A stretch of DNA of 43,647 nucleotides, from IMG/VR virus record IMGVR_UViG_3300042269_000036. One strand, given 5' to 3'. The translations under genes were made by a program, and so were the position numbers. The notes under the pieces were generated by a model. That model was not told the origin of the DNA. It saw only the letters and a program-made list of their open reading frames with translations, and searched no databases. The stretch is from a virus. This document shows positions 1-41,448 of this stretch, piece after piece. How positions within the stretch are numbered: position 1 is the first letter of the stretch; every line of letters starts with the position of its first letter.

Positions 1-127
1 TTGCCCCTGAACCACCTGGCACCGCTCACAGCGAGGTGGTCACAAGGTGGGAATGCCGCCACAAATGCAATCCGACTTCGGCTTACTGGCGGCAACCACG
101 GGCGCGTCAAGTCGGCGTGTACCTTAT
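1..127. repeat. Terminal direct repeat, left copy (identical to 43521..43647)
   Basis: Both termini read base by base: ttgcccctgaaccacctggc...gtcggcgtgtaccttat, 127 nt, no mismatch. Confidence 0.97.
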
Positions 128-5894: not shown

Positions 5895-6030
5895 TGTCTC
5901 CTCCGATTCTCGCTGCCTCGTCCGGAAAGTAGCTGGCAAGGCAGCGGTCACATATTCCGTGGGTTTCTCCCTCCTGATTGTCGTCAGTAAACCCCATTAC
6001 CGTTTTGCACCATGCACATCGGCGCGTCAT
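5806..6030 (-). CDS. Small zinc-ribbon protein (74 aa), hidden in the tail of a repeat-derived artefactual ORF
   Basis: ATG 6030 overlaps the TGA of the repeat-protein gene (ATGA). MTRRCAWCKTVMGF...THGICDRCL is a CxxC...HGICxxC pattern. The last 89 nt overlap gene 5631..5894 in another frame. Confidence 0.5.
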   Translation of the reverse strand: MTRRCAWCKTVMGFTDDNQEGETHGICDRCLASYFPDEAARIGGDNGNQTSHRKGYGVEPDEKLRGGRIFLHAV

Positions 6031-6719
6031 CGGTACAACTCCATGAACCTCAGCCGCTTGGCTACCATGACCGTTAGACGGTCGTTTTGTGAGTCCCAAG
6101 CAGCGTCCCGAGCAGCGGCCCAAGCAGCGTCCCGAGCAGCGGCCCGAGCAGCGTCCCGAGCAGCGGCCCGAGCAGCGTCCCGAGCAGCGGCCCCAGCAGC
6201 GGCCCAAGCAGCGTCCCGAGCAGCGGCCCGAGCAGCGTCCCGAGCAGCGGCCCAAGCAGCGGCCCGAGCAGCGGCCCAAGCAGCGGCCCGAGCAGCGGCC
6301 CAAGCAGCGGCCCGAGCAGCGGCCCAAGCAGCGGCCCCAGCAGCGTCCCGAATAGAATCATCGCCCGTTGCGAGGTAATCTTTTACAACCTGAGGAGCAT
6401 CCCATAAGTGGATAACGTCAAGTGCGCAGCTGCGAGCAAAGGTGCGTAAAATGTCGTCGCAATCTACACGCGCAAGATACGTGCGCTCGGTCGCACAGGA
6501 CTTGTCGCTGCCGTGCAGAATCTGGCCGCCAAGCTCTACCCGATAAAGAATGCTGCCGCTGGCATACATAAGCGCATCAATAAGCCGCTTGCTGGCATGC
6601 AATCCGTTCCCGCACAGTTCAAGTTCGCCCTCTACGGTGTGCGTCTTGCCGCACTGGACAGGGCGACCGTCGCCGTACCCGAGGGTTTCGTTTTCGTCGC
6701 AAAACCACCAACCATACAT
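6027..6719 (-). CDS. Protein with globular N-domain plus about 21 tandem AA(R/W)(A/D) tetrapeptide repeats (230 aa)
   Basis: ATG 6719 with AGGAGGG 5 nt upstream. N-domain MYGWWFCDENETLGYGDGRPV...LCGNGLHAS...RVEL; C-terminal AAWAAARAAAWAAARDAARAAARDAAW. Confidence 0.7.
   Translation of the reverse strand: MYGWWFCDENETLGYGDGRPVQCGKTHTVEGELELCGNGLHASKRLIDALMYASGSILYRVELGGQILHGSDKSCATERTYLARVDCDDILRTFARSCALDVIHLWDAPQVVKDYLATGDDSIRDAAGAAAWAAARAAAWAAARAAAWAAARAAAWAAARDAARAAARDAAWAAAGAAARDAARAAARDAARAAARDAAWAAARDAAWDSQNDRLTVMVAKRLRFMELYR
6094..6350. repeat. 12-bp GC-rich tandem repeat, about 21 units (plus-strand unit gcagcg[g/t]ccc[a/g]a)
   Basis: Direct reading; stop-free in several frames of both strands. 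Confidence 0.9.
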
Positions 6720-6733
6720 GTTCCCTCCTGTGT

Positions 6734-6910
6734 TCATCGGCATGACTCCATCATCTGCTGTGCATGCCGGGCTTCCAGCTGCGCGATGCGGTCCTCTCGC
6801 TCCATGCACTCCAGCAACCCCCACACAACTACGACGTAGAGGAACAAGATGCCAGCAAGGTAGCCACAGTTTTGTATAAACCACTTAACAGCACGATTCT
6901 TTGTTTCCAT
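6734..6910 (-). CDS. Small single-pass membrane protein (58 aa, below the ORF-track cutoff)
   Basis: Hand translation METKNRAVKWFIQNCGYLAGILFLYVVVVWGLLECMEREDRIAQLEARHAQQMMESCR. The stop lies 15 nt before the next ATG; overlaps the 3' end of 6885..7070 by 26 nt. Confidence 0.5.
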   Translation of the reverse strand: METKNRAVKWFIQNCGYLAGILFLYVVVVWGLLECMEREDRIAQLEARHAQQMMESCR

Positions 6911-7070
6911 TGCGCCCCCTTTTCAGCCGCCGCAGTTCCTGCGAGACAAACGTTTGCATAGCGTTGTCGGTCAGCTCACCGATGCGTATATGTTCGCCGC
7001 GCCGCCGTTTAGCAACGATGAGCTCCAAAAGATCGTTATAGGTTTTTTCCGAAACTCTTATATTTTTCAT
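6885..7070 (-). CDS. First early gene: small RHH/Arc-like DNA-binding candidate (61 aa)
   Basis: MKNIRVSEKTYNDLLELIV has a beta-strand then helix pattern. It is the first ORF downstream of the predicted early promoter/operator. Confidence 0.5.
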   Translation of the reverse strand: MKNIRVSEKTYNDLLELIVAKRRRGEHIRIGELTDNAMQTFVSQELRRLKRGRNGNKESCC

Positions 7071-7216
7071 GTTGGTACCTCGTTAAAGTTAAAGTGTTTC
7101 TCCGATTCGACGGGTCGCGGGCTCTGGCGCATTCGTCCGTTGCGCGGGACCGTCACAGCCCTTGCGGGCCTCGGCTCTATTCGGTTTTCAAAGATCGTTC
7201 GGCGTTGTTGATTTCA

Positions 7217-7244
7217 ACTATACGCCTTTTTCGCAAAACTGCAA
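7217..7244 (-). promoter_or_regulatory. Predicted early promoter: TTGCAG-N16-TATAGT
   Basis: -35 at 7244..7239 and -10 at 7222..7217 on the minus strand, about 145 nt upstream of ATG 7070. Confidence 0.5.
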
Positions 7245-7267
7245 GAAAAAATTGCACGTTTGCGAAA
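7229..7267. promoter_or_regulatory. 39-bp imperfect palindrome (operator candidate) overlapping the early -35
   Basis: TTTCGCAAAACTGCAA-gaaaaaa-TTGCACGTTTGCGAAA; the arms match 14/16. Confidence 0.6.
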
Positions 7268-7362
7268 TAAATATATGAAAAAATAGAAAGGTGTTGCAAA
7301 ACAGTGACTTGCGTTGTGGGATGTGAGTGCCTGGAGGTAAGAATGGTGGGAGAGGAGGTGTA

Positions 7363-7395
7363 GGGCGACGGTCAACCCGCCGCCCTTTGTTTGTT
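7363..7395 (+). terminator. Hairpin + T-run, terminator-like on the plus strand
   Basis: GGGCGACGG-tcaac-CCGCCGCCC (one mismatch) followed by TTTGTTTGTT. Overlaps the stop of minus-strand gene 7372..7575. No U-tract in the minus orientation. Confidence 0.45.
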
Positions 7396-7575
7396 ATACA
7401 CCCGCACCGTAAAACCCGGTCGCTTCATGGCGGGGAGGATGTCAATCTTACTGTATTTGCTATCCTTCACGCTGTATCCGGTAACGACCAACTCTCGGTT
7501 CAAAACGTCATCGATACGGATCTTGTTGCCGTCCAGGATTTCTGGATCTTCGGCAAAATCGGAGAAACGTTGCAT
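7372..7575 (-). CDS. Last late gene, hypothetical (67 aa)
   Basis: ATG 7575 overlaps the upstream TGA. MQRFSDFAEDPEILDGNKIRIDDVLNRELVVTGYSV. Confidence 0.55.
   Translation of the reverse strand: MQRFSDFAEDPEILDGNKIRIDDVLNRELVVTGYSVKDSKYSKIDILPAMKRPGFTVRVYNKQRAAG
7405..7446 (+). repeat. 42-bp repeat, copy A (inverted partner at 35890..35931)
   Basis: CACCGTAAAACCCGGTCGCTTCATGGCGGGGAGGATGTCAAT versus the reverse complement of copy B: 38/42 identical by hand alignment. Confidence 0.9.
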
Positions 7576-7886
7576 CACAATCCAGCCAGAGCACTATCCA
7601 CAAGGGTGTAACAGCTTTCGCGGAAGGTCTGATAATCCAGCCATTCCTGCGAGGTACGATCGAGTGCGAGTTTTCCGAGTTGAGATGAATAATCGTGACG
7701 CTCCGTGATCAGGGCGTCAATCAATGTCCCTCTGTTTATATCCGGCACATTGACATAATCGTATTCATATCCCTGCACAGTTTCGCCATCGACAATCTTC
7801 TCAACCTGTTCAATGTTAAACCGGAACTGATAACCGCCGTTGTGCGGCACGATTGCGTCAGGTTGCTGTGTACTGCTGCCTTTCAT
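7575..7886 (-). CDS. Hypothetical acidic protein (103 aa)
   Basis: ATG 7886 with AAAGGAG RBS. The track start at 8012 lies inside the upstream gene and is rejected. Confidence 0.6.
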   Translation of the reverse strand: MKGSSTQQPDAIVPHNGGYQFRFNIEQVEKIVDGETVQGYEYDYVNVPDINRGTLIDALITERHDYSSQLGKLALDRTSQEWLDYQTFRESCYTLVDSALAGL

Positions 7887-7923
7887 AATTAACTCCTTTG
7901 TGGGTATTTTTTGTGCGGACGCA

Positions 7924-9195
7924 TTACGCTTTCTTAAAGCAGAGCCGCCCGCCGACATCCGTCCTCGCAGTCGAAGCCGCGCTAAACGCAAACCAATAGA
8001 ACGGACCCGCAACCGAACCGTAAAACGCGTAACCGCCCACCCGGAAAACGCGCAGACCCGCCGCTTGATAGAAATAGTCGGTCATTTTTGTGGATGACGA
8101 ACCTGTAACATCTGCCGGGAGGACGATGCCTAGCCCGGAGTGCGGTTTGCCGCCGTAGCCGTTGCTGGTTGGCAACAGCACGCCGTCACCTACGGCGTTG
8201 AGCAATCGCGTCCAGCCAGCCACTGATGAGTAATTAAACGGCGGCTTGGTCTTGTAGTAGACCGCATAATCGCTCACAAGAGATGCCACGCGGTCCCAGA
8301 CGTTGCCGTAGGTGTTTTCGATGCCGAGTACCTGGGAATAGTCGGTAAGATAGCCGTCCGTGCCACCGGCTTGCACAGCACTGTGATAACCGCCTGCTGC
8401 ATCACCAAGACCACAACGCCCGATATTGACGTCGTTGGTCCATCCGCCATCGGTTAATGCGGTCCGCCCGCCGCCGACCATGCTCTGAAAATTCCAGCCC
8501 GCAAAAGCCACCAGCAGCAGCAACCGCTCCCAATGCCGCGTCATAAAATCCGCCTGCTGCCAACCCGCCCCGCGAGCCTCCGCCAGGGTATCGGTTACCT
8601 CCGTGGTCAAACCGGCATGGCCCCAATCGCCTGTACGGGTTGTTACCGGCCAGACGGGGGATGTGCCGTCGCGGGGGTCTTTAGCTATAGAGGACAATTT
8701 GTTTTGTCCAGGGACAAGTGACGCCTCATATGCCCCCAGATACACCGCGCTACTGTCCGCAAACACCGGATGCAGCGCGAAACCGTCGAGGGGCAGGTGG
8801 CTGAGCAGGATGTAATACCAATCGCCCCATATACCGGTTTTGACGTAGGCCGGTAGATACTCCATCATGATCTGACCATTACCGCCGGTAAGATCAACGT
8901 CTGTACCATCCTCATGTTTGGTAAAGTCCGCCCAACTAATGCCTTTATAGACCGTTCCGTCATCGGCAAGGACAACGCGCCTTAGCTGCTGAAAGATCGG
9001 CGATATGTAGGTGCCCGGGAAGCTACCCACGGCAAGGCCCTGCGCTGAACCGAGGCGTTGCCAAGTATCGGTGGTGATGTTGTAGGCGGCCCCGACATAG
9101 TTTGATTGGGTCGCCCCTCCAATATCGCCGGTCATTGCCAGCATATTGGTGACAGCATCGTTAAGCTGGTCAAACGTATAACTTAAAGTACCCAT
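7924..9195 (-). CDS. Second receptor-binding candidate with lectin/FGE-like C-terminus (423 aa)
   Basis: GIENTYGNVWDRV and terminal RVFRVGGYAFYGSVAGPFYWFAFSAASTARTDVGGRLCF resemble the C-type-lectin fold ends of Mtd-like tail proteins (from memory). Confidence 0.45.
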   Translation of the reverse strand: MGTLSYTFDQLNDAVTNMLAMTGDIGGATQSNYVGAAYNITTDTWQRLGSAQGLAVGSFPGTYISPIFQQLRRVVLADDGTVYKGISWADFTKHEDGTDVDLTGGNGQIMMEYLPAYVKTGIWGDWYYILLSHLPLDGFALHPVFADSSAVYLGAYEASLVPGQNKLSSIAKDPRDGTSPVWPVTTRTGDWGHAGLTTEVTDTLAEARGAGWQQADFMTRHWERLLLLVAFAGWNFQSMVGGGRTALTDGGWTNDVNIGRCGLGDAAGGYHSAVQAGGTDGYLTDYSQVLGIENTYGNVWDRVASLVSDYAVYYKTKPPFNYSSVAGWTRLLNAVGDGVLLPTSNGYGGKPHSGLGIVLPADVTGSSSTKMTDYFYQAAGLRVFRVGGYAFYGSVAGPFYWFAFSAASTARTDVGGRLCFKKA

Positions 9196-12139: not shown

Positions 12140-12367
12140 TTACCCTCCGATCTTGGACTTGAAACTCGCACCGACGATGAACAGAGCCAAAGCACCAAGC
12201 AGCACAAGAGCTATAAACCCGCGACGGATTGCGCTTGTTGACTCGCGGTAAATCTTGAGCAGAGTTCGGATGTCGTGGCGGTCATCTTCGGTAAATGTGC
12301 AGTCGTGGTTGATTTGTACCGCATCGGCAATAGCTTTAATGTCTTCGTCGGTAAGAGTCCGTTTCAT
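12140..12367 (-). CDS. Small protein with C-terminal TM helix, holin/anchor candidate (75 aa)
   Basis: RRGFIALVLLGALALFIVGASF; directly upstream of the endolysin. Confidence 0.5.
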   Translation of the reverse strand: MKRTLTDEDIKAIADAVQINHDCTFTEDDRHDIRTLLKIYRESTSAIRRGFIALVLLGALALFIVGASFKSKIGG

Positions 12368-12502: not shown

Positions 12503-14113
12503 TTAGTCCCATAGGTATTTGTAGCCTAGGCATATAAGGCCTGCACTGAGGGCTGTGCTACTGGCCCTTAGGCGTATTTCGGAAGAGGCATCGCAAAGAA
12601 TTTCAATCTCCATTTGTGATCTTTGGGAGACCAACCCGTCACGCGTCATGCGAAGATTGTATGTTTCTGAGGTTGGTGCCGTGTCTGTTTGTCTCGTCTC
12701 TGTAACCAACCCGAAAAGGTCGCCAGAGCCAGTCGGACAGTTTAGGAGGAAAGAAACCCTTGCTCGAGAACCTGGAGGTGCGGTCAGCCTCATTGTTTCC
12801 GCATTGGTGGGAAGCGCCGTTCGCGTTCTTTCTTTTTTCGGCGTGTCCCAAACAATTCTGCCATCGCTGTCTGAAAAAAATGGTACGATATTCCCGGCCC
12901 CGTCATTAAGCACCCACCCTATCTGCCTGTATAGCGAATATGAAGACGCATCGGAAAGCAGGTTTGTTGCAGAGGCGTCAGAATCGAACCCAGCATCGAT
13001 CAAGGACAAATCTGACGAAGCGATTAAAAACACCCTGTACCATTCGGGCTCGGTGCGCGTGAAGACGGCAGTACCATCCGACACGGTGGGATTTGATGTT
13101 GCGTACCCTGACGGCTGCGAAGAACCGGAAGTTCCAGCGGTGGTGCACTCCCACCACCAAGGTGAAGAAGTTACTTTAATCAAATCGCCAAGGCTGTAAG
13201 CCGTGGAATTTGCCCTGTCTTCGATGCTCGTCTCTAGCGTCAAACCTGACGGGAACCCTCCTGCGTCTGTTCCTTGCGCCCATGCTGCGTCAATCTGTTT
13301 TGTCAAGCCGGTCGCTAAAGTTATAATCGCCTGGTTTGTGCTGTCACGGCATGCGCCCGCAGATATGTCTATATCGTGGGATGCGTCGGTCCCGTTCGCA
13401 ATATTTAATCCATAGTGTGATGCGCCAAGCATTACGCTTGCTGCGTTTAGGCTTGCAGGAGTTACAGCTGCGGCAGTGTCTTCCCCTGCTTGTGTATCCG
13501 CGTCGGTAGCGAACCTCATCACCCCTTTAAGGACGCTTGTCGCATCGGCGTCGATCTTTTCCAAAGTCACTGCGCCTTTGGCAAGTTTCTCCGTTACAAT
13601 TGAGCCGTTTTCAACTATGGTATATTGTGGCGTTTCGTTTGTCACAGCATCCCCGGTTTCGTTCCACACGAGGACTTTCCCCGCCTCGGGATGCGGCAGG
13701 TCGGTACTCGCTCCGGAAGTATCGGAATCGGGGAGCTTAAACGACACGCCGACTTGTCGGGACAGTTGTTGTATCTGCATAACGATCCGGTCAAGCTCTT
13801 GTTCCAGCGTGTCCGGCCTGAACCCGTCGCCCTGGATTAAGTCAAGCCGTTGCGTGTAATCAACGTTCCGCACGACAATCAATTTCCCGTCGCTGTATGT
13901 TGCAACCGTAGTAAGCTCACCGCCACTTTCACTGCCCGCTCCCGTTAGGGTATAATCGGTTGTGAGCGTCAGAGGATATGAAATGTCACCGGCTGCATCT
14001 TCACGATAGACCGTCAAATCTGAGTCTTGGAGGAAATAAAAAGGGACGGTATAAACCGTCCCCCCTGTGCAAACGAAAATTTGCTTGCTTGTCTCGTTGG
14101 ATAGTGCCATCAC
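12503..14113 (-). CDS. Tail fibre / tailspike (536 aa)
   Basis: Position after the internal virion genes. N-terminal YFLQDSDLTVY...DYTLTG...LIVVRNVDYTQRLDL...LEQELDRIVMQIQQL is an adaptor-type block. Confidence 0.65.
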   Translation of the reverse strand: MMALSNETSKQIFVCTGGTVYTVPFYFLQDSDLTVYREDAAGDISYPLTLTTDYTLTGAGSESGGELTTVATYSDGKLIVVRNVDYTQRLDLIQGDGFRPDTLEQELDRIVMQIQQLSRQVGVSFKLPDSDTSGASTDLPHPEAGKVLVWNETGDAVTNETPQYTIVENGSIVTEKLAKGAVTLEKIDADATSVLKGVMRFATDADTQAGEDTAAAVTPASLNAASVMLGASHYGLNIANGTDASHDIDISAGACRDSTNQAIITLATGLTKQIDAAWAQGTDAGGFPSGLTLETSIEDRANSTAYSLGDLIKVTSSPWWWECTTAGTSGSSQPSGYATSNPTVSDGTAVFTRTEPEWYRVFLIASSDLSLIDAGFDSDASATNLLSDASSYSLYRQIGWVLNDGAGNIVPFFSDSDGRIVWDTPKKERTRTALPTNAETMRLTAPPGSRARVSFLLNCPTGSGDLFGLVTETRQTDTAPTSETYNLRMTRDGLVSQRSQMEIEILCDASSEIRLRASSTALSAGLICLGYKYLWD

Positions 14114-17100
14114 TCACCTTTTCTTTTTGGCAAGAATATGTTTGCCGCCGTCCCGTTGCCTTCTTCTATCTGGTCATAACCTTTTTTCATGCGTCGGTAT
14201 ACTTGGGAGACGGGGACACCAGAAGCAAAGCTTGCGGCCTCCGCAAGCCCAAACATAACCTTTCTTGCATCGTCAGCGGTCGGGTCTGTAAGCAGATTGG
14301 CCGTGCTCCTCCCCGTTCGGCCAACAATGTTGACAAGCTCAAGTGCCGGGGTACTAACAATATCACCGTACCCGCGCCCCATGGCGTACTCAACCAAGTC
14401 GCGTACAATGGGAAGGCCCTGGACACTGCTTCCAATAACTTCTTTTGCAATCTCTTCAGGTTCTGGAGGTTCTCCAGTCCGCAACATGGCTAAAAAGATG
14501 ATGGGTACAAGGGGTTGCGCCACCCCCGTTAAAAAGTTATGGAACAAAAACTCATGCAGAGACATTTTACCGGCGCGCCATGCACCCCAAGTAGCTCTTT
14601 GCAGATTACCAAAATTGCCAGCGAAGCCAAAAAATGGAGTAAACAGCCTTCCGATAGCCGACAACCCCTCGGTAGAGCGTTGCAGGTGCGACAAGTCCAG
14701 CGCATTGCCTGACGGCTGGATTTCTTTGATCTTCGTATCGGCATAATCAACGGCTTGCTCCACGTCGCCGTCAAACTTGTCAAGCCCATCCCGATACGAC
14801 CCAAGCCATGTTGGGAGGAAGGACACGGAGTCAGCCGCGACAATCCCAGCATAGCCAACAGCCATAATATCTTCACGGCTCATGCCGAAGAATTTCTTTT
14901 CCGGCTTGAACTTCATCATCTGACGCCGGAAATCGTTATCATATGCCATATACCGTGACCGCATATATGGCGACAATTTCATGATATTGTCAAAAGCTTC
15001 TTTCGGTCCTTTGATAAATTGTCCGTACCCGCGCAGCATGGTCGGGAGTCCTACCCTGGCCTGCGCCTGGAAAAACCCGCCAAAGTTTTTCATGGCGGTA
15101 ACAATATTCCATCCCATATAAAATGCGGAACTGCGCTTCATAGCCCATTGAATGGTTTTTTCCCAGCGTGTCCCGACCATGCCGTCTGGCCTGATCATGT
15201 GCTTCAAGCTTGGCCGGATCATCTTGTAAAGCTCCGGCCCTAATACACGGATGGCTTCGGATTGATACGTCTTGTTCCTCGTTACTCGGTCAACATCCCT
15301 AACAATAGGCGCAAGATGGATATATCTCAGGGTGTCGCTCAAGTGTTCACTCAACACCGACATGGAGAGTTTTATAGGAAGCTTAGACCCGGTTGCGGTG
15401 CGCTTCTTGGTAAACCCAGACTTGGCCGAAGGGGTTTGCAGAACGGCTTCCTGTCGTGAGGACAAGTCGCTCATTTCGTCCCACATGGCTGCAAGCATAG
15501 ACAGACTCCCATCGTATCGAATGGGGAAATACCCACCGCTAATCTCAATGGGGCCGCCGTCTTTTGTTTGCACGGTAATCGGTTTTGCCTCAACTTTTTT
15601 CAGCCGGAAATGATTAAGCTTCAAATGTACCGCGTCAACTTGCGGGTAGAGATCGTTGATGCTGTCCCAAATGCCCTGCACAGCCCTCCAATCTTTTTGA
15701 GAAAGAAATTTTGTAAGCTCCTTGAACTGTTCAACGGCCATGGGTGTGCCATTAACCGTAAAACCTGCGGACATACGTTGCAGGTTGTCTGCGTTGCCCA
15801 TGTTTAGGGCTACCATGATAATATGCTCAAAGGTCCAATGTCGGTTATCCGGCTTGAAACAGTCCGGCACAGGAACGTCGGTTTTAACCTCCTTTCCGTG
15901 ATCCTTCCATGACGTAATCAGTTGTTCGAGGTGCGGTGTTATCTTGCCGCCGACCTCTTCCATGGCGGCGTAGAAATTATCCAGCCCCTTGGCGAGGGGG
16001 GTCCAAAGTTTGCGCTCGTTGACACCGGCCTTGCCCTTCTTACTGATATTGGCCCACCCGTCCATCTGCCGGAACAGCCACAGGGGGATGCGCAGACCGG
16101 CAAAATACGACTCTTTCACGTCCTGCAACTTGCGCCGCAGGCTGTCGTGCTTCGCCAGCTTCTTGCCCTTCATCTTGGCTGCTTCCTGTACGGCTTCGGC
16201 TGCAAGGTCGGCAATGGCTGTTTTCTCGTCTGAGAGTAGAGCTTTTTTGACTTCGCGACCACGCCCGACGAGGAATTTCAACAGGTCGTCCAGTTCCTGG
16301 ATTTCGCCCCATGTCATTTCCGATGTGGCGCGAGTGTCGTTGTGCAGCCAATCGGAGAATACCGGAACACCCAGGGCGGTTATGTCGTCAAGATTGCCTG
16401 TTATACCGCTTAAAAACTCGCCAAGCTGTGGCGTGCCTTCGTCAACATTGAGCCTACGTGACACCATCTGGTTGCGGAGTAAAAGCTGGTTGATCTGCTG
16501 CCGGTATTCGTAAGCAACATCGGCCTTTACCGCACGTTTCCACCGTGCTTGCGTCTTGCGATAGGCTTCGTTCGCCCGATAGTGGGCAGCGATAAGAGAT
16601 TCGTTAAGCCGCGCCTTTTCATTCAAGTCGAACGCCTTGGTCCAATCCTGCGCCTTGACGGCCTTAATGACCTGCTGACGCAACCGACGCGAAGCCACCA
16701 ACAACTTATTGACCTTGATGGCATCGCCTACCTTCTGCCCGCCTGTGGTCTGGTCTGCCCATACGCGCAAGGCTTTACGGGTCAACGCTGCCCGTCCTTG
16801 TGCTTCTTTGCGCGCCAACCATTTGCTTTCAAGCTCCATCTGCTTACGGGCTTTTGCGGTCCTTATCGCTTCTTCCGTGGTCAGTTCCGCGTCGTGCTCG
16901 ATGTCTAATTGAGCGACGCGCTGTTCTATCCACTGCGTTTTCGTCTTAGACTTGGATAACTCCTTGACGAATTCCCGCGCTGACTCGTAACCGGCTTCGA
17001 TAGCTGCGTGCTCGATGTCGAGGCCGTCTTTTTTAAACAGCCCCTTTACATTCGGAAGCTTCACATCGCCGAACAGCCGCTTAACGCTGGACCTATCAAT

Positions 17101-20100
17101 GCCGCCGCGTTCCACAAGCATGGTCATGGCCTTATAGACCGGCACTTCTTCAACTTCCGCCTTCGCCTGTTTGCGCCATTCCTTCAGTCGCTCGTCGAGT
17201 TTTGCGGTGCGCTGCTTGTCCTTCTTTTCTGCCGCTTCGGTTTCTGCACCATCGACGGCCTTTCTGTATTCCGCGATTTCTTCCGGTGTTGCACCGGCCT
17301 CTTTGAAAAACGCTTCATCAAGTGCCGCGATCTGCGCCGCCATTTCACGGGCCTGCCTTATTTCCTCGTCGGTGGCCACGAGCCTATCGAATACGCGCCT
17401 AATATCGTCGTTGATCTCCACCTGCAAGGCATCGGCGGTCTTGTAGATGTTTACCAGCCAGCGTTTGAACTGCCGGAAAGCGCCTATAAGACCTGTGGCC
17501 GGGGCTTCCCCTTCGCGTAAGTAAGCCTCAAAACCACGGGCGAATTGCTCGTGCTGTTCCGTGGTCAGCTCACCGTCTACGCCAAGCCATTCCTTGATCG
17601 CGTTCCACTCGTCAACCTGCACGCCGTACTTGTCGGCCACATATTTCAAATCGTTCAGGAACAGGTGCCCCATTTCGTGCAGAAAGGTGGATACGTTGGC
17701 CTGCTCAAACAGGGTGATAAGGTTGTTGCCTTCGCCGGAGATTAACGCGCCACGCGGGGCAGCATCGGTGCGGAAAATGGTGTCAGCTTGGTAGTTGATG
17801 CGCGGGTCGGTGGCGTCGAAGGTGCCTCGGTTGCCGGTAGCGGATTTGATCTGGGTGGGGGAGAAGACGGCATACACATCGGACGGTTGCCTTGTTTCTG
17901 TGTTCGCGGAGTCAATAACATTGCGAATTATAAGGCCGTCGTGCCCACCGGACACCGCCCGCTCAAAAGCGTCGGGATGAGTCTCGAACCAGAACTTCCC
18001 TTTTGCGTCAACCTCTAACGGGTTCTCCATTGAAAGGTAGGCCGGGACAATGTTGCTCCCTTCACTCGGAACCTCGAACCTCTCTACACGATCCCCTGCA
18101 TCCCTGCGCTTGGCAGCGAGTTGGTCTACCTTCTCCCTTGCGGCCAAGGCTTGCGCGGATTTAGGGCCATAGTCTAGGGCCGCATGCCCCCATTCCATCA
18201 AGGCAGCGTCTTCGGCGCTCCTTGCCGAGCGGAACTCATCACTCCCCATCCAGGGGGCCGCATATCCACCTGCCACTTCAGGACTGTCTGTGAAGAATGC
18301 CGCATCCGCAAAGCGCTCCCCAACCTCACCGGCACGCGCAAGGTCGAATGTTCCGAAGTCGGCGGTTGTCCCATGATAAACCACCAGCGGTTCGCCGTCC
18401 TCATCGACCACCTTGCTATCACCGAACCAGGTTTTGAACTCAGGAGTATCAATCTTTCCTGCCCCTTGGAACTGCGCCGCGTCAAGCTGATGCTCTGCCG
18501 CGAACTCGTCAAACCCCTGCCGCTGGATGGTGATGCCGAATCGTTTTAGATGTTCCGCCGCTTCAATTCCGGTCAGCTTCGCCAAGACGTTGGCGCGGGC
18601 GATGATCGGCATAATGCTGTACGAGGCGTTGTCACCCTTCACCCCTGCGTCTTCTAGCTGGGCCTTAAGGTCGGCTTCAATTTGATCTACCATGTCAGGA
18701 GAAATTAGACGCCGTTGCTCTTCATCGTACAGCTCTTTAATCCGGACGTTCGCGGCACTTTCGGCTTGCACATCGGCCTCGGCTGCGTTAACCGTGGTTT
18801 CCTCTGCGCTGATACTCAGATCGTTCTGGAATAACGTCATGGCTTGGTCGGTACCGACGCCCGCAGCAACCTTCCCGAAGTCCATTTCTACTGCGCCACC
18901 GGTTTGTAACGCCGTGATAAGCTCGGTTCGGCTTACACCATACTGCTCCGCCCATGTCGTTACTTCCTGCTGAGTCATCCCCTGTTCGTCAATGAGCGTT
19001 TCGACAAGACGGTCCGCTTGCAAATACACTTTCTCGACGCCGTTCTTTTTCCCGACACGCTCCATGAACTCCGCGAACGCTTCAGGAGACCTCTCTTTAA
19101 GACGCGAAGCTTCAACAGAAGTGGCAACGTCAATCAGCTTGTTTTTTCGTACCTCAGCTTCCGTCTTGGCTTTGTGAGCGGCTTTTATGTCTCCGGCAAG
19201 GGTAACCCCGCCGCCTACCAGCCCGGTCACGGCCATCCCCTTTCCTACCTTTTCGGCAATCCCCTGCAACTGCTCCATGGTCGCAGGGTCTTTAATGGTC
19301 TGCGTGATGCTCTGGTCCTGTAACACGCCGCCGACAATGATGTTCGTCAACTCCTGCGCCATTTCGGTCGTAACTTCGCCGGTCCACGCCATTGCGTAGT
19401 TTTTGGCGAAATCGAAAAACGCTTTGCGAATTGTCGGGTTGGAAAGCACCAAGCCCTTAACGCCGTTCGACATAACTTTTCGCAACCCAGGAATGACTTT
19501 CGCCAGAGCCGAAAAGCCGACCGTTTCTAGGGTGGCGTTGGCGACACCGACAAGCTCGGCGGCTGCGGCGGCTGTTTTGTCGTCTATCTGGTTGCCTTCG
19601 CCGTCCTGCAAGGTGCGAAACTCGCGGAACGCCTGCCCCGCTTCCACGTCGTGCGCATGCTCGAAATACCCAACGCGGAGACCTATCCCAGCACCAGCCA
19701 AGGCCCCGGCAGGGGCGGTAATCGGTGCGGCAATCTCTCCGGTAGGTGCTGCGGCCACAGCTCCGGCACCGGCACCTGTTATAGCACCGGTCAAGCCGCG
19801 TTCCATAACTTTAGGCGACTTCATCGACTCGAACATTTGGCCGACAAGCTCAGACGCTGCCGGGATGAATGATGACAGGCCCGTATCTGTGGTCTCATAA
19901 TTGCTGGCCGCGTCGAGCTTGGCGAGGTATTCAAGCTGATCGGGAGGTAAGTCTTTGCCCTGCAATATGAGCCGCCGCCGTTGTTCCCACAGCACCCCGC
20001 CCCGGTCCATTGCTTGTCCGGAAATGAATTCGCGGTATGTGTCGGTGCCCTTGACGAAACCAGGAACGAGAGACGAAGAAAGCCCCTCAATGTTCTTCAC

Positions 20101-35493: not shown

Positions 35494-35570
35494 TACAGGA
35501 GGAGAGGTGCCTAATTACGCTTAGGCTTGCGGCTCGGTTAAGGCCAGAGCTTGCCTATTTTCTGCCAAAG

Positions 35571-35646
35571 TGGAGCCGCTAGCGGGACTCGAACCCGCAA
35601 CCTACTGTTTACAAGACAGCTGCTCTACCAGTTGAGCTACTGCGGC
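35571..35646 (-). tRNA. tRNA-Thr (anticodon UGU), CCA encoded
   Basis: Hand-folded cloverleaf: acceptor GCCGCAG/UAGCGGC (one A-A mismatch), D arm GCUC-AACUGGUA-GAGC, anticodon stem GCUGU/ACAGU with loop CUUGUAA, T arm GCGGG-UUCGAGU-CCCGC. Confidence 0.85.
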
Positions 35647-35889
35647 AGAATTTTAAAAGTGCCCCCACGGCCGCACACAGGAACAAGCATCAAGCGGTTT
35701 TGCACTGGTCGCCACACCAAATAGCCTTGGACGTGCCCTCGCTGTATCACCGTTGCACAGAAGATAGCCAGGTCGCTCACTCCGTTGCTTGTCGTCGCCG
35801 TTATATGCCCGTAGGCAGAATAGGCTAAGGGCGCTACGTGGATTACCGTAACGGCCTTGTAACTCCGCCTCCGCATGGAAGGTGAGCTA

Positions 35890-35931
35890 ATTGACATCCT
35901 CCCGGCCGTGAACTGACCGGGTTTTACGGTG
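35890..35931 (-). repeat. 42-bp repeat, copy B (inverted partner of 7405..7446)
   Basis: Minus strand reads CACCGTAAAACCCGGTCAGTTCACGGCCGGGAGGATGTCAAT; 38/42 identical to copy A. Confidence 0.9.
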
Positions 35932-35940
35932 TGCTTTGAT

Positions 35941-35971
35941 AAAAAAAGGGCTGCGAATCTCTCCACAGCCC
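35941..35971 (-). terminator. Intrinsic terminator between the last early gene and the late region
   Basis: GGGCUGUGGAGAGAUUCGCAGCCC followed by UUUUUUU on the minus strand. Confidence 0.7.
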
Positions 35972-36003
35972 TGCGCTTACCTAATTCTCTCAAGATACTT
36001 TAT

Positions 36004-36032
36004 AAGCTAACATCGCTAAAAAAAATTGTCAA
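36004..36032 (-). promoter_or_regulatory. Predicted late promoter TTGACA-N14-TGt-TAGCTT (extended -10)
   Basis: Minus strand, read directly; only ~30 nt upstream of the terminator hairpin. Confidence 0.5.
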
Positions 36033-36087: not shown

Positions 36088-36438
36088 TTATTCGCCTTTA
36101 TCGCCCTGCTCAGTCGTACCGTAGACAAGATCGGCAATATGCAAGCCAGAGTTTTCAAGCCTCCTCCTCGCAACCTCTTTCCAAAACGTCCTGTGCGGTT
36201 TTCTCAACTCCTTCGGTACCGGGTTGTAATCCTGGGTGCCGAAGTAAATTGACTTGATCGCCAGCGAATCGCCGCAGGATAAGAAGTCAATCGCCCATTC
36301 CAAAAACGTCCTACCTCCACCCCTGCCGCCTGTCTGCACCCTTTCTGCTGGCTGTATTGCGTCCGGCAATATTTCCGATTCGTGCCGGAGAATCCATGCT
36401 GCTCTGAATACCCTGCGTTTCTGCGGCCATGTTAGCAT
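36088..36438 (-). CDS. Last early gene, hypothetical (116 aa); late-regulator candidate by position only
   Basis: ATG 36438 with AAAGGAG RBS. The 175-aa track version overlaps the upstream gene. Confidence 0.55.
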   Translation of the reverse strand: MLTWPQKRRVFRAAWILRHESEILPDAIQPAERVQTGGRGGGRTFLEWAIDFLSCGDSLAIKSIYFGTQDYNPVPKELRKPHRTFWKEVARRRLENSGLHIADLVYGTTEQGDKGE

Positions 36439-36452
36439 CTGCGCTCCTTTCG

Positions 36453-36647
36453 CTATTGGTCCACAAGATCCCTCAACCTCTCGCCCCTGCTCCACATCTC
36501 CCGAAGCACCTTTAAATCCTCGGCCATCCATGACGTTCTCGACGTTGCCTGCCCGTTGTGTATCAGCCATGTGGATTGAGGTATTTTCGCGCCGTTGCAG
36601 CGAGGGCAGTAGCAATCTACGAGGTAGTCTTGTTTAGGCCCGGCCAT
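36453..36647 (-). CDS. Small protein with CxCxxC and a W-x-EDLKVLREMW helix (64 aa)
   Basis: MAGPKQDYLVDCYCPRCNG...SWMAEDLKVLREMWSRGE. Confidence 0.55.
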   Translation of the reverse strand: MAGPKQDYLVDCYCPRCNGAKIPQSTWLIHNGQATSRTSWMAEDLKVLREMWSRGERLRDLVDQ

Positions 36648-36665: not shown

Positions 36666-37976
36666 TCATGCCACACCTCGTATCTCTTCAAGGTTTCCGT
36701 AGCGCGAGAACTCAGGCAACCACACCAGCTTAATAGCACCCGTTGGGCCGTTGCGCTGCTTGGCTACGATAAGTTCCGCCCTGCGCTCGTGATGCAAGAT
36801 GTCACAGTTCCCGGCCTTGCATTTGTCGCAGTACACCGCCTCCCGGTAGGGAAACAGAATCAGGTCGGCGTCCTGTTCAATCGCTCCGGACTCCCGCAGG
36901 TCGGCCATCGTCGGGCGCTTGTCGGTGCGCTTTTCCAAGTCGCGGGAAAGCTGCGACAGGCAGATGATCGGGACGTTTAACTCCTTCGCCAGCCCCTTGA
37001 GGCTACGCGTAATATCTCCAACGGCTAAATCGTGCCGGTCGGCTTTGGGTGTCTTCATCAGTTGCAGATAGTCGATCACGATCAGGTCAAGGCCATGCTG
37101 CCGTTTATGTCGTCGCGCCTTGGCCCTCAACTCCATCACGCCAAGCCTTGCCGTGTCGTCAATCCAGATCGGCATGGACGCCATAGTTTCCGATGCCTGG
37201 ATCAGTTTCGGCCAGTCGCTCTCGATAAGCTGCCCGGTTCTAAGCCGCTGGCCATCCACTCTGCCGATAGAGCCAAGCATTCGTTTAATCAGCGACTTGT
37301 CGCCCATTTCCAAGGAAAATCCCAAGCCCTTGAACCCTTTGATCGCTGCGTTTTCAAGGATGTTTACGGCCAAGGCTGTTTTTCCCATCGACGGACGACC
37401 GGCGAGAATAACGAGATCCCCCGGTTGCAGCCCCGAAGTCATGCGGTCCAGTTCGGTATAGCCGGTCGTGATGCCGGTAATGGCACTTTTGTTGTTGTAG
37501 TGCTGCTCGATTTCAGCCAGCACAGGTCCGAGTAAATCTTTAACCCGGATCGCCGTTTGTTCGGCCCCGCCGCCCTCGCGAATTTCCATAATTTTTGACT
37601 CAGCTAAATCCAGAGCGTTGTCGTCTTCGATCGCGTCCTGAATTTCCCGGCAAGCGTTTATCAACTTCCGAGCCGTGGCAAACTTGCGGATGCTGGCGCA
37701 ATAATGTGGTATGTGTGTTGGCAACCACCCGTCTGTGCACAAGTCATTAAGGTAGGATGCGCTTACTTGGCCACGCAGTGCCGAAGACACCGCCACCAGA
37801 TCAGGAGGCGTGGATTTGTCGCTCAGTTTGCGCATGGCACCGTAGATATGGCGATGGCGCTCTGACGCGAAATCGTCCACGCCAAGAAACACGCGGTCCA
37901 TGGCGGCGGGATCGACAAGGATACAGCCAATCACGGCCTTTTCTGCGTTTATGTCGGCGAGAGTATGGCGGTCCAT
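36666..37976 (-). CDS. dnaB: Replicative DNA helicase, DnaB family (436 aa)
   Basis: AEKAVIGCILVDP N-domain, GRPSMGKTALAVN Walker A, LIVIDYLQLM Walker B, SRDLEKR...DLRESGAIEQDAD. Confidence 0.92.
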   Translation of the reverse strand: MDRHTLADINAEKAVIGCILVDPAAMDRVFLGVDDFASERHRHIYGAMRKLSDKSTPPDLVAVSSALRGQVSASYLNDLCTDGWLPTHIPHYCASIRKFATARKLINACREIQDAIEDDNALDLAESKIMEIREGGGAEQTAIRVKDLLGPVLAEIEQHYNNKSAITGITTGYTELDRMTSGLQPGDLVILAGRPSMGKTALAVNILENAAIKGFKGLGFSLEMGDKSLIKRMLGSIGRVDGQRLRTGQLIESDWPKLIQASETMASMPIWIDDTARLGVMELRAKARRHKRQHGLDLIVIDYLQLMKTPKADRHDLAVGDITRSLKGLAKELNVPIICLSQLSRDLEKRTDKRPTMADLRESGAIEQDADLILFPYREAVYCDKCKAGNCDILHHERRAELIVAKQRNGPTGAIKLVWLPEFSRYGNLEEIRGVA

Positions 37977-38650
37977 TCTTCTTCGTCCTTTCGCTGTTTA
38001 GGGGTGAGTTGCACGACTTTCTGCTGATTCCTCCCTTGCTGCAAATATCCCTCGAATTTGTTTCCAAAAAGAGTTTCTGGCCTAAGGTATGGTTCCATCT
38101 TCTCGTCGCCCATCCACTGCCCCGCCATGGTGCTGATGACGGCCTTGAAATCGGCTAAGGAGAAACCTTCTTTCCATCTGGCCGTTATTAGGCTTTTTGT
38201 TTTACTGGTTGTTGGCTTAAATGCCTTCCCTGTTTTTTCGTTCAGGAAGTTGATTATTTCAGAAAAAGGGATATTGTTTTTTATTGATGGTTCTTTTATA
38301 GGTTCTATGTGAACCTCGTTCACATCTATTTGGTCGTCAGGTTCACATCGATGTGAACCTCGTTCACATCGGGGAGATGCGTTTTCGTCGTCCACAATTA
38401 GTGTGTATATGTTGCTTTTTTTCAACCCGCCAACTGCCCTGTTCGTGACCCTAAGTATCCCTTTGGCTTGGAGTGATTTAACAGATTTCACAACTGCTCG
38501 TCTCGTGAACCCGGTTTTTTGCGCGACACGTTCCATGCCGGGCCAACAACGGCCATCATCGTTTGCGTGGTCAGCGAGAGCTAAAAGTATTAGTTTTTCT
38601 GTAGGAGTACATTTTTGTTTCCAAGCCCATGCCATTGTTGATACGCTCAT
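37949..38650 (-). CDS. Replication initiator / helicase-loader-like protein (233 aa)
   Basis: N-terminal winged-HTH block KLILLALADHANDDGRCWPGMERVAQKTGFTRRAVVKSVKSL and C-terminal FSEIINFLNEKTGKAFKPT...ARWKEGFSLADFKAVI. Contains iterons. Confidence 0.7.
   Translation of the reverse strand: MSVSTMAWAWKQKCTPTEKLILLALADHANDDGRCWPGMERVAQKTGFTRRAVVKSVKSLQAKGILRVTNRAVGGLKKSNIYTLIVDDENASPRCERGSHRCEPDDQIDVNEVHIEPIKEPSIKNNIPFSEIINFLNEKTGKAFKPTTSKTKSLITARWKEGFSLADFKAVISTMAGQWMGDEKMEPYLRPETLFGNKFEGYLQQGRNQQKVVQLTPKQRKDEEEWTAILSPT
38306..38370. repeat. Iteron cluster (ori candidate) inside the initiator gene
   Basis: ATGTGAAC-ctc-GTTCACATC at 38307..38326, GTTCACATC at 38341..38349, GATGTGAAC-ctc-GTTCACATC at 38350..38370. 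Confidence 0.7.
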
Positions 38651-39201: not shown

Positions 39202-41448
39202 TTATGCAATAAATGACATTTGCTCTGCGGTGTTGGTGTCGGCCTCAACGAGGTTTTTAACGGCCTGACTGAAATAACTGTCTTTCAATTCAACCCCGAC
39301 GAATTTTCTACCCATTTTCAATGACTGGTAGCCTTCTGACCCGATCCCGGCAAATGGCGAGAAAACCGTGTCGCCCTCATTGGTCCACAGTTGCAAGGAC
39401 CGTTCAATAACGTCGAGTTGCAACGGGCAAATGTGCCGTTCGTCTTTATCGTCGCGAGCGGAAGTACGCTGCAATGTGTTGGACGGGTTAATGTCCATCC
39501 AGACCGGGGATGCGTACCTTTGCCACACGTCGATTGACAAATTTTTCGTTTGTTTAAACGTCGACTGATCGCCCGCGAAATACTTAAGTTCACCGCACAC
39601 AGGTTCTGGGTTTTCCCCCGGTTTGCGCATGACCACCAGATAATCTGGTATGCCCTGACGCGACATGCAACTATCTTTTTTAAGTTGTTTGTGGAGTAAT
39701 CCAAGTGCCTTTGTGCGTTGCATGGCCGTTACCGGGTCCTTCCAAATAACCACTTCGCTGTGATATATCCAGCCAGCGTCCTGAAATGTTTTGATGAGTT
39801 GCCCGCGAAAATCCTTAATGCCGATAACCCCGTCGCGCGCTTTACTGGTCGGAAGATTCATACAATGAAACGCGCAGAGCCTCCCCGGCTTAGTAATACG
39901 CAACAGTTCCGGCACCAAGAAACTGAAATGGTCAGCAAATTCCTGATCCGTTTTACAGTTCCCCATGTCGCGGTCGCTGGCCGAGTAGGTATAAAGCGAT
40001 GCGAACGGCGGGGAAAAGATCGAAAAATGCACGCTGTCGTCGGGGATTTCCCGCGTTACGTCAACGCAATCGCCATGGTATAAGGTCCAATTTTCGGATG
40101 ATTCAACCCCACGCGCATAGTCAACAGTCTGACGCGTTGTGCCGTGGATCTCATCGGTGTTAATACCCGCCATATATTTCACCATTTCTGACGCCATCAA
40201 CTCCGCGTCAGCCTCTTTGCGTTCAATGTTTTTCACAACCGCCCCTTCCGTTTCTGCGGTCACGACATGGACTGTGACCTTGTTTTTCTGCCCGAACCGC
40301 CAGCATCGCCTAACCGCCTGATAAAATTGCTCATAGGAATCGGACAGTCCGAGAAAAATCATAGTGTCGCAATGTTGCCAATTCATGCCAAACCCGGCGA
40401 TGCTTGGTTTGGTGACAAGCGTTTTAACACTGCCATCCGAAAAGCCGAGCATGGCAGATTCTTTGTGCTCGTTTTTATCAGATCCTTTCACTTCTACCGC
40501 GCCGTCAATTAAATGTTTTGCTGCGGCAGATTCATCGTTGAGGTTGCACCATACTAGGCACGGTCCATTCGTGTTGTTGGCAATTTCTGCTGCGAGCTTG
40601 GCGCGTTTGCCCACAGTGGCTTTGCGCTCTTGCTGTCGCTCCTGCAACGTAAGCGCCTCGACCGGGAACAAAAACCCATCGGGAGCCTCATTCTTTTTGA
40701 CAACATGGTGTTTAATCTCAAGCGGCGGCAAAATAAATCCTCCGTCGTCATACCCAAGATCGGACGGTTTGCGAATCATGACTGCCCAGGACGCCACCCA
40801 TCGCCAGAAATCATTTTGAGCATGCCCTTTGATTCGCCATTTCTGCGTTTCTCCACCGTCATGCACAAAAAACATGCTTAACATTTCCACACGGCTCATC
40901 ACACCCAAAAACTCTGCATGGTTGCCTAGTTCCATGTGATCGTTCGGGGCGGGCGTTGCGGTACACGCCAGACGAAAGGCCGTGTTTTTGAACGCATCTA
41001 TAATCTCATTTCTTATTTTCCCGGTATAGCTCTTTAAAATTGATGATTCATCAAGGACGACACCAGCAAAATGGTCTGCATTAAATTTGCCAAGCATTTC
41101 ATAATTGGTTATTGTGATTCCTGATGAAACTTGTTCTTGGCTGCGGCAATACTTCACGTCAATGCCAAACTTCGCGCCCTCCCTAACGGTTTGCATTGAC
41201 ACGGCCAGCGGAGCCAGGATTAACACATCGCCGCCCGTATACTCATGAACATGCTTCCCCCACTCTAGCTGTATGGCTGTTTTGCCCATTCCACAATCGG
41301 CAAACAGCGCTGCCCTCCCGCGCTTTAACGCCCAACGAACAATGTCTTTCTGGAATTCGAACAGTGCCGGGTTTATTCCAACGTCTGCGCGTATTCCAGT
41401 TGCCGCGTCCGCCACGGCTTTTTTCTGCAAAAAGTCCTCGTATCGCAT
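39202..41448 (-). CDS. Fusion of SNF2/DEAD-type helicase and beta-class N6A/N4C DNA methyltransferase (748 aa)
   Basis: DCGMGKT (Walker A), VVLDESS (DExx), helicase C block QAVRRCWRFGQ. Then FSPPFASLY (motif IV) precedes FSPFAGIGSEG (motif I). Confidence 0.85.
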   Translation of the reverse strand: MRYEDFLQKKAVADAATGIRADVGINPALFEFQKDIVRWALKRGRAALFADCGMGKTAIQLEWGKHVHEYTGGDVLILAPLAVSMQTVREGAKFGIDVKYCRSQEQVSSGITITNYEMLGKFNADHFAGVVLDESSILKSYTGKIRNEIIDAFKNTAFRLACTATPAPNDHMELGNHAEFLGVMSRVEMLSMFFVHDGGETQKWRIKGHAQNDFWRWVASWAVMIRKPSDLGYDDGGFILPPLEIKHHVVKKNEAPDGFLFPVEALTLQERQQERKATVGKRAKLAAEIANNTNGPCLVWCNLNDESAAAKHLIDGAVEVKGSDKNEHKESAMLGFSDGSVKTLVTKPSIAGFGMNWQHCDTMIFLGLSDSYEQFYQAVRRCWRFGQKNKVTVHVVTAETEGAVVKNIERKEADAELMASEMVKYMAGINTDEIHGTTRQTVDYARGVESSENWTLYHGDCVDVTREIPDDSVHFSIFSPPFASLYTYSASDRDMGNCKTDQEFADHFSFLVPELLRITKPGRLCAFHCMNLPTSKARDGVIGIKDFRGQLIKTFQDAGWIYHSEVVIWKDPVTAMQRTKALGLLHKQLKKDSCMSRQGIPDYLVVMRKPGENPEPVCGELKYFAGDQSTFKQTKNLSIDVWQRYASPVWMDINPSNTLQRTSARDDKDERHICPLQLDVIERSLQLWTNEGDTVFSPFAGIGSEGYQSLKMGRKFVGVELKDSYFSQAVKNLVEADTNTAEQMSFIA

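Follow-up and report, generated by a model that had tools for sequence, protein, structure and literature searches.

[quoted passage not shown] Each hairpin carries a 4-nt guide at its 5' foot, AAAG on the left and GAAT on the right, and recognition follows a pairing rule (PMC5934647), with the right-end guide GAAT pairing with TCAA for right-end cleavage (PMC3201880, PMC5934647). IS608 has no terminal inverted repeats and makes no target duplication (PMC3201880, PMC5934647), and elements of its type use the lagging-strand template (PMC6006769, PMC5027513). Furthermore, TTTAT is the experimentally defined TAM of a Geobacillus TnpB, and gene-less, PATE-like derivatives of IS605 that keep the transposon ends are known (PMC10055086).

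Here, we analysed a 43,647-nt stretch of viral DNA (the window, by which we mean the whole stretch) in which two inward-pointing copies of a 42-nt core border the late region. Comparison with relatives and with full-length insertion sequences suggests, at a probability of roughly 0.88, that each core is a 48-nt remnant of an IS609-type IS200/IS605 insertion sequence that has lost its interior.

Two inverted 48-nt elements with insertion-sequence ends

The assembly closes into a circle, as bases 1-127 of the window are identical to 43521-43647, and the minus strand is home to nearly all genes. On this strand, the replication genes are followed by a 175-aa ORF, the non-coding stretch with copy B and the tRNA-Thr gene, and then by the terminase, portal, capsid, tail, lysis and tail-fibre genes, a 67-aa ORF and the early and recombination genes (below 7.2 kb; Table 1). 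An inverted 42-bp core at the two borders of the late region had been reported in a first-pass annotation, and this observation was borne out. The arms (7390-7446 and 35890-35946; 57 nt, 82% complementary) constitute the longest inverted repeat found in the window by a repeat search, cores A and B are identical at 38/42 positions by blastn, and a degenerate 42-mer pattern matched twice in the window, against 0 matches expected from 100 shuffles. The positions ascribed to the copies also held: copy A overlaps the 3' end of the minus-strand 67-aa ORF, copy B is non-coding, and the two bracket the structural and late block, with tRNA-Thr, terminase, portal and capsid through the tail genes inside. 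By contrast, the further ~40 nt of weak similarity claimed beyond the core gave a local alignment no better than shuffles (p = 0.78). PHROGs and Pfam returned nothing for the 67-aa ORF, a 145-aa ORF or the 175-aa ORF upstream of copy B, and a DNA search with 6800-8200 against the phage collection gave no match. At both gathering and permissive thresholds Rfam matched the tRNA alone, and the GC skew of the window showed no origin signal. The putative promoter upstream of copy B scores below the threshold of the promoter scan.

Table 1 Coordinates of the features discussed in the text
Feature	Position	Strand	Remarks
Terminator-like hairpin (7363-7385) and T-run at the late/early boundary	7363..7393	+	Oriented for + strand transcripts; outside the repeat
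TTAT target/TAM adjoining the left end of copy A	7394..7397	+	Tail of the T-run
Copy A, 48-nt single-hairpin mini-element	7398..7445	+	ACACCCGCACCGTAAAA-CCCGGTC GCTTCAT GGCGGGG-AGGATGTCAA; alignment A1, L159/L167 pair
Truncated chimeric gene, 67 aa	7372..7575	minus	Codons 1-43 (7447-7575) homologous to a conserved 97-aa phage protein
tRNA-Thr(UGU)	35571..35646	minus	ARAGORN and Rfam; first gene downstream of copy B
Copy B, 48-nt single-hairpin mini-element	35891..35938	minus	CAAAGCACACCGTAAAA-CCCGGTC AGTTCAC GGCCGGG-AGGATGTCAA; alignment A1
TTAT target/TAM adjoining the left end of copy B	35939..35942	minus	Tail of the terminator T-run
Predicted promoter-proximal intrinsic terminator/attenuator at the late-operon head	35943..35972	minus	Stem 35972-35947, then T-run
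Sigma-70-like promoter candidate, TTGACA-17 nt-TAGCTT	36004..36032	minus	Read from sequence; upstream of terminator B
DnaB gene	36666..37976	minus	
O-like initiator gene	37949..38650	minus	
Helicase/methylase gene	39202..41448	minus	

The repeated unit could be refined to 48 nt, namely 7 variable nt directly after TTAT followed by the first 41 nt of the 42-nt core and ending in TCAA; the final T of the core is probably flank, outside the element. Alignment A1 pairs the first ~38 nt of these mini-elements, through the hairpin, with the left end of full-length IS200/IS605 elements that carry TnpB, and the last 10 nt with the right ends of such elements. Copy A, for example, is made up of a left-end linker, the guide AAAA, a hairpin and a right-end tail that ends in TCAA. 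TTAT stands at the left junction in all 12 distinct insertion contexts, both window copies included, and most of these read TTTAT; the 12 independent contexts all diverge exactly 5' of TTAT, and the right flanks of complete mini-elements diverge after GTCAA. In both copies the 3' tail from the hairpin foot through TCAA measures 10 nt (copy A, GGCGGGG/AGGATGTCAA/; copy B, GGCCGGG/AGGATGTCAA/; slashes mark boundaries), and the same spacing is found at the full-length right ends of L012, L018, L109 and IS609. The target tetranucleotide of the window elements lies 17 nt 5' of the hairpin foot. The IS608 rule holds for the window copies, L012 and the other mini-elements, whose guide AAAA pairs with TTAT, and for the L018 element, whose guide AAAG pairs with the flank TTAC. 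The elements have no terminal inverted repeats, and their junctions showed no target duplication.

The full-length comparison includes two close relatives of the window, one (L012) with a TnpB above the NCBIfam IS200_TnpB cutoff and the other (L018) with an element that has both an IS200/IS605 TnpA and a TnpB. The L012 element begins TTAT/CCACTCGCACCGTAAAACCCGGTCCTTCAGGGCGGGGATATAAGG and ends ...GAATCCCCTTCCTTTAGGGAGGGGAGGAGGTCAA/. Its right end recurs in L109 after a C-terminal remnant of TnpB, and its left end recurs after TTAT in L023, L029, L030 and L160 (Desulfuromonadaceae MAG), with flanks that all differ. Both ends of IS609 from E. coli K-12, which has a tnpA pseudogene and insQ, align with the window elements as well. 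A search with the 14-mer GGGAGGATGTCAAT gave at least 119 matches, mostly by chance, and led to L109 and L127. The protein motif 'IDILPA..GF' was discarded, as its matches in L109 and L127 fall outside real ORFs. We also rejected a 5'-truncated fragment of a class C group II intron as the source of the core, because Rfam gave no match and the core aligns with the ends of TnpB-carrying insertion sequences. The intron idea had been prompted by insertion after terminators and by a reverse transcriptase gene near the intact 97-aa gene in L009.

The 48-nt unit encodes no tnpA, tnpB or omega-RNA, and tblastn with the L012 TnpB detected no TnpB in the window; the unit is thus either a remnant or a non-autonomous derivative. 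In alignment A1 it has a single hairpin, and the guide of the right end (GAAT/GGAT) is missing. The thermodynamic stability of the element hairpins is ordinary (z -0.35 and -0.81), and the stem of copy A contains a G.G mismatch, both points against a remnant. In several copies (L164, L020 and copy A) the stem is a mismatched hybrid, with a 5' arm of the left-end type and a 3' arm of the right-end type. The CAAAGCA linker on the left of copy B is unlike the CCACCCG of full-length left ends, and the linker is hypervariable among mini-elements that are otherwise identical, which also counts against a remnant. Among the viral contigs searched for full-length parents with a B-type hairpin, B copies alone were found.

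The same 48-nt fusion is present in unrelated metagenomic and viral contigs (L020/L021/L025 and L163-L166), in phages HK97 and HK106, where tfa lies on one side of it and the sib/att/int region on the other, and in H-19B, 933J and dozens of Stx1a-converting phages, where the stx1A start codon follows ~40 nt downstream. None of these sites carries an annotation. Of 5426 complete E. coli genomes, 4966 have matches resembling the left end. We found no description of the 48-nt mini form in the searchable literature, where one may still exist.

Resident hairpins and breakpoints

Folding confirmed the strong GC hairpin that had been reported upstream of each core. Hairpin A (7363-7385) folds at -9.4 kcal/mol with z -3.8 in single-strand folding; its stem of 8-9 pairs is followed by TTTGTTTGTT, and the terminator scan made no call. 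Hairpin B (35972-35947) folds at -8.1 kcal/mol with z -3.3, and the scan calls a terminator with 11 pairs and T7. The common design of the two is not a matter of shared descent, however, as each hairpin occurs in relatives without the core. L152 and L155 have a promoter, hairpin and T-run identical to those of window B (...GCAGCCCTTTTTTTAT), and the element is absent; in L151 the position of terminator B is taken by a hairpin of another sequence, again with no element; and L159 has hairpin A and the left flank, which continue as ...TTTGTTTTTAT/CCGTGTGTCAAC... with no core. Because the hairpins are found in relatives that lack the core, the hairpin and T-run are resident and the core is the intruder. 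As judged from these relatives, both upstream hairpins are resident, mutually unrelated and not part of the repeat, and their presence without the element rules out the idea of homologous hairpins with compensatory changes. Upstream of the element, similarity between copies A and B is confined to CGC(C/A)GCCCTTT(G/T)TTT (p about 0.02). In about 5 of the 12 insertion contexts, a hairpin stands immediately before the T-rich target. Hairpin, T-run and core recur together because this family inserts 3' of TTAT or TTTAT, a motif that the T-run of a terminator supplies when followed by AT. The shared architecture is therefore one of target choice and not a composite functional unit.

At copy A, the inner edge falls within a protein-coding gene. 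The homologues of the 67-aa ORF (P0002-P0008) are 97 aa each. Identity to the closest of them, P0002, is 100% for residues 1-43, and from there on the two are unrelated; codons 44-67, the final 24 of the ORF, come from reading on through the mini-element, the T-run and the hairpin. L009, L010 and L011, the contigs in which the gene is intact, share 98-100% DNA identity with the window up to 7446 and none beyond, which identifies the inner edge of core A as a rearrangement breakpoint. A search of the window did not recover the missing C-terminal half of the 97-aa gene. After the intact gene, L009 and L010 have a 63-aa gene and, beyond it, a lysogeny module on the opposite strand (integrase and HTH repressors). 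Neither the integrase of the L009 region (by tblastn) nor its repressor or nearby reverse transcriptase has a homologue in the window. The uninterrupted right-hand site for A, as seen in L009, reads GATTTAT/TCTTACTG and so has its own TTAT. Furthermore, L159 and L167 form an empty and filled pair at site A. They are collinear, share the same flanks on both sides and differ by ~50 nt, about the length of the element.

At the position of copy B, three relatives (L151, L152 and L155) have 0.3-0.7 kb with one to three small genes, and they become homologous to the window again precisely from TTAGCTCACC on, the bases directly behind core B. The uninterrupted right-hand site in L151, GAATTAT/TTAGCTC, likewise has its own TTAT; that of L155 reads ATCT/ and not TTAT/. 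Given that TTAT is found at right-hand sites too, each copy couples the left flank of one legitimate target site with the right flank of a second. The 41 nt after the linker of copy B are identical (41/41) to L166, in an unrelated context. An earlier proposal that the cores are recombination scars came closest, in that their inner edges are sharp breakpoints; no evidence of a module inversion was found.

Proposed origin of the elements and alternative explanations

The parent would have been an IS609-like element with tnpA and the RNA-guided nuclease gene tnpB. Each remnant would retain the 17-nt left linker including the guide AAAA, one subterminal hairpin and the 10-nt tail to TCAA, and would have lost the interior between the end hairpins, including tnpB and the guide RNA. 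As the right-end guide is absent and the stems are mismatched hybrids, we infer that recombination or slippage between the end hairpins, which resemble each other, deleted the interior. While the element was full-length or present in two copies, the DNA adjoining it on the right may have been lost up to another TTAT, either by homologous recombination of two like-oriented copies (annealases of the Erf/Rad52 type are encoded by these phages) or by aberrant right-end strand transfer to a downstream TTAT, which would give an adjacent deletion. At A, such an event would have removed the 3' half of the 97-aa gene and the DNA beyond it, where L009 has its lysogeny module, and at B a cassette of small genes. 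At the four junction sites, none of the relatives found had a full-length element or a second copy. If replication starts in or near the O-like gene (~38.3 kb), the active strand of both copies would lie on the lagging-strand template, which may explain why they point inward, an arrangement that two copies alone would show by accident in 1 of 4 cases. The 48-nt fusion product is probably immobile, and the remnants are most likely without function in the phage today.

Alternatively, the 48-nt unit could be an active miniature transposon, a minimal PATE or MITE moved in trans by TnpA from full-length elements in the host and homing to TTTAT behind terminators. This would fit the presence of the chimeric form in at least seven unrelated contexts plus HK97 and the Stx1 phages, the identity of copy B with L166 over 41 nt in unrelated genomes, the clean L159/L167 pair, and the fact that the best 40 of 147 matching phage records all have the complete mini form; moreover, gene-less PATE-like derivatives of IS605 do exist (PMC10055086). 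However, the guide that pairs with TCAA in IS608 is absent, there is one hairpin whereas the TnpA dimer binds two, and the mismatched hybrid stems of L164, L020 and copy A resemble products of recombination between left and right hairpins. In addition, copies A and B differ although they share a genome, and collapse of full-length copies after insertion accounts for the same data. We consider active movement unlikely. A more far-reaching proposal, that the unit would be truly mobile as the smallest known derivative of the IS609 family and would serve as portable homology for module exchange, appears somewhat less probable still. In that case an element reduced to a single hairpin, a single guide and two cleavage sites would move into temperate as well as lytic phages at the TTTAT of terminator ends, and the exchange could include the loss of lysogeny modules and the capture of leader positions such as the 5' UTR of stx1.

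A regulatory reading, in line with one of the options listed in the first-pass annotation, would make the cores paired cis-regulatory sites (nut/put/Q-utilisation-like, or for RNA processing), each serving one direction of transcription into the late region. Copy B does lie in the late-operon leader just past a promoter-proximal terminator, the core (38/42) is better conserved than its surroundings, and the element is also found in the stx1 leader of Stx1 phages. Nevertheless, L151, L152 and L155 share the promoter, terminator and late genes and manage without the core, just as L159 has hairpin A without it; the boundaries are those of transposon ends, and the unit is present in unrelated genomes. 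A transcript of copy A would be antisense to all genes, no convincing plus-strand promoter was found, and no Rfam family matched, so that we regard a regulatory role as very improbable. Inversion sites for the 28-kb segment, or a packaging signal, merit even less credence. Inverted repeats do flank a defined module, but the core recurs in unrelated genomes with ends that match those of TnpB-carrying elements, the L009 integrase has no counterpart in the window, and none of 28 ORFs scanned against Pfam or PHROGs matched an invertase or recombinase family. Neither a linked serine invertase nor alternative orientations, which define hix/gix-type invertible segments, came to light in that scan and in the relatives with copy B (L002-L004) or copy A (L012-L019), which keep the flanks of the window with no inverted arrangement seen. 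Inversion would also put the late genes on the strand opposite their promoter, and 48 nt at 85% identity is a poor substrate for recombination. Hardly any likelihood attaches to the suggestion that copy B is a pseudogene fragment, the decayed inverted duplicate of the 3' end of the 67-aa gene. The plus strand of copy B reads IDILPAVN*PGFTV-CFDKKRAA, against IDILPAMKRPGFTVRVYNKQRAAG in the gene tail, with a 3-nt indel between them, yet intact homologues lack the tail altogether and the similarity ends exactly at the element boundary. The peptide is a reverse-strand reading of a transposon end, like the reading at the TnpB right end in L109. The suggestion had the direction reversed, since the gene end is itself a read-through of a transposon remnant, and on the homologues compared we take it to be already refuted.

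Implications and comparison with described systems

With remnants of an IS609-type element as the preferred reading, the two cores are ordinary transposon debris of a well-known kind, unannotated, and not a regulatory, packaging or inversion system. A false regulatory reading, that of paired nut/put-like sites, can be dropped from the annotation of the phage, and the 67-aa gene is to be treated as a truncated chimera and not as a real gene. Debris of the IS609 type is at present unannotated even in the reference phages HK97, H-19B and 933J, and it can be searched for with the signature TTAT/N7-CACCGTAAAA-hairpin-AGGATGTCAA/. Debris of this kind flags mosaic junctions, in this phage at the late/early boundary and in the late-operon leader. 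Were the 48-nt unit mobile, it would be an unusually small transposable element and a plausible driver of module exchange in lambdoid-type phages.

As in IS608, the insertion point of the window elements lies 3' of a tetranucleotide, which a guide of 4 nt recognizes from the 5' foot of the hairpin. The window elements differ from IS608 in that the target is TTAT (guide AAAA) and not TTAC (guide AAAG) and the linker is 17 nt and not 19 nt long; among the elements of the relatives, L018 alone has the AAAG/TTAC combination of IS608. Described PATEs retain both the left-end and the right-end hairpin and are longer than the 48-nt unit. They share with it the absence of genes and the retention of transposon ends. 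The 48-nt unit, however, is a single-hairpin fusion of left and right ends whose mobility is unproven, and in alignment A1 it does not have the two hairpins, each with a guide, that characterize a PATE.

IS609 of E. coli K-12 is among the closest matches. Its left end, TTTTTAT/CCGGTGCGCCGTAAAACCCC..GGGG, aligns with the window elements and has the same target, TTTAT, as here; its right end, ..GGAGGATGTCAA/, aligns with them as well. In K-12, too, a terminator hairpin and T-run immediately precede the copy, as they do in the window. In contrast, IS609 is ~1.7 kb long with two end hairpins and genes, and the window elements are 48 nt long and gene-less, with one hybrid hairpin and with neither an omega-RNA scaffold nor a right-end guide. 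Similar positions recur in the reference phages: the HK97 copy lies at the end of the late operon between tfa and sib/att, like copy A, and the Stx1-phage copy lies downstream of Q and just upstream of stx1A, a late-leader position like that of copy B. Both belong to a different sequence subtype, with the hairpin CCCCGTCC/GGGCGTGG, and both also follow TTTAT.

Full-length elements and variation of the mini-element

Full-length IS200/IS605 elements were found in two contigs of relatives (L012 and L018), inserted into phage sequence that is otherwise near-identical. Judging from these insertions, transposons of this family are evidently active in the phage population to which the window belongs. 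[quoted passage not shown] Its first 6-7 nt after TTAT are hypervariable (window 35932-35938 compared with contigs L166, L165 and L163), with the starts CAAAGCA, CTGACG, CCGGTGC, CAGATCG and ACACCCG, and the 41 nt 3' of this start are sometimes identical across unrelated genomes. Compared with L020 and L021, L025 has lost the right tail of the mini-element through a deletion, and the GGGAGGG of the L025 mini-element now lies at Shine-Dalgarno distance from the ATG of the downstream gene. This placement may represent a case of co-option.

The mini-element was also located in HK97 and in Stx1 phages. In the Stx1 phages an A+T-rich stretch immediately precedes it. This stretch, which has no such annotation in the record, is probably the stx1 promoter region regulated by Fur; if so, the mini-element is part of the stx1 leader.

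Features located in the window and in other sequences
Feature	Sequence	Position	Strand	Content or context	Target
IS200/IS605 element	L012	5087-6220 and flanks		TnpB only	TTAT
IS200/IS605 element	L018	361-1919		TnpA + TnpB	TTAC
48-nt mini-element	NC_002167.1 (HK97)	20864-20915		between tfa and sib/att; unannotated	
48-nt mini-element	AF034975.3 (H-19B)	12149-12199		Stx1 phages: ~40 nt upstream of stx1A ATG	
'Polyvalent' virion-type protein, 2122 aa	window	14110-20478	-	domains LPD22 and ADP-ribosyltransferase (ART-PolyVal)	

Gene content and genome ends

Directly adjoining copy B, the tRNA-Thr segment (window 35507-35790) is swapped for approximately 48 nt in the near-identical contigs L003 (6485-6534) and L004, and presence of the tRNA is therefore polymorphic. 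In relatives L009 (543-5880), L010 and L011 the intact 97-aa gene is followed by a lysogeny module in convergent orientation, with an integrase and HTH repressors; L009 additionally encodes, two genes upstream, a reverse transcriptase (RVT_1) of 305 aa. No homologue of the integrase, HTH repressors or reverse transcriptase of these relatives was present in the window, so the lysogeny module appears to be missing from its lineage.

ORF 6027..6884 (-) has a DUF7666 domain and contains a 12-nt unit in approximately 30 tandem copies (window 6047-6399), of which related contigs L002 and L004 hold a diverged version. The first and last 127 nt of the window (1-127 and 43521-43647) are 100% identical, which suggests that the assembly overlaps itself at its ends and that the genome is circular or terminally redundant, with a length of 43,520 bp.

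Head of the late operon

At the head of the late operon (window 35943-36032), a sigma-70-like promoter is followed within at most approximately 55 nt by a strong terminator, and a hairpin is kept at the terminator position in relatives. This arrangement, together with the kept hairpin, suggests that late control operates through antitermination. Just upstream of the promoter, the 175-aa ORF 36088..36615 (-) had no match in Pfam or PHROG; its position is that of Q in lambdoid phages.
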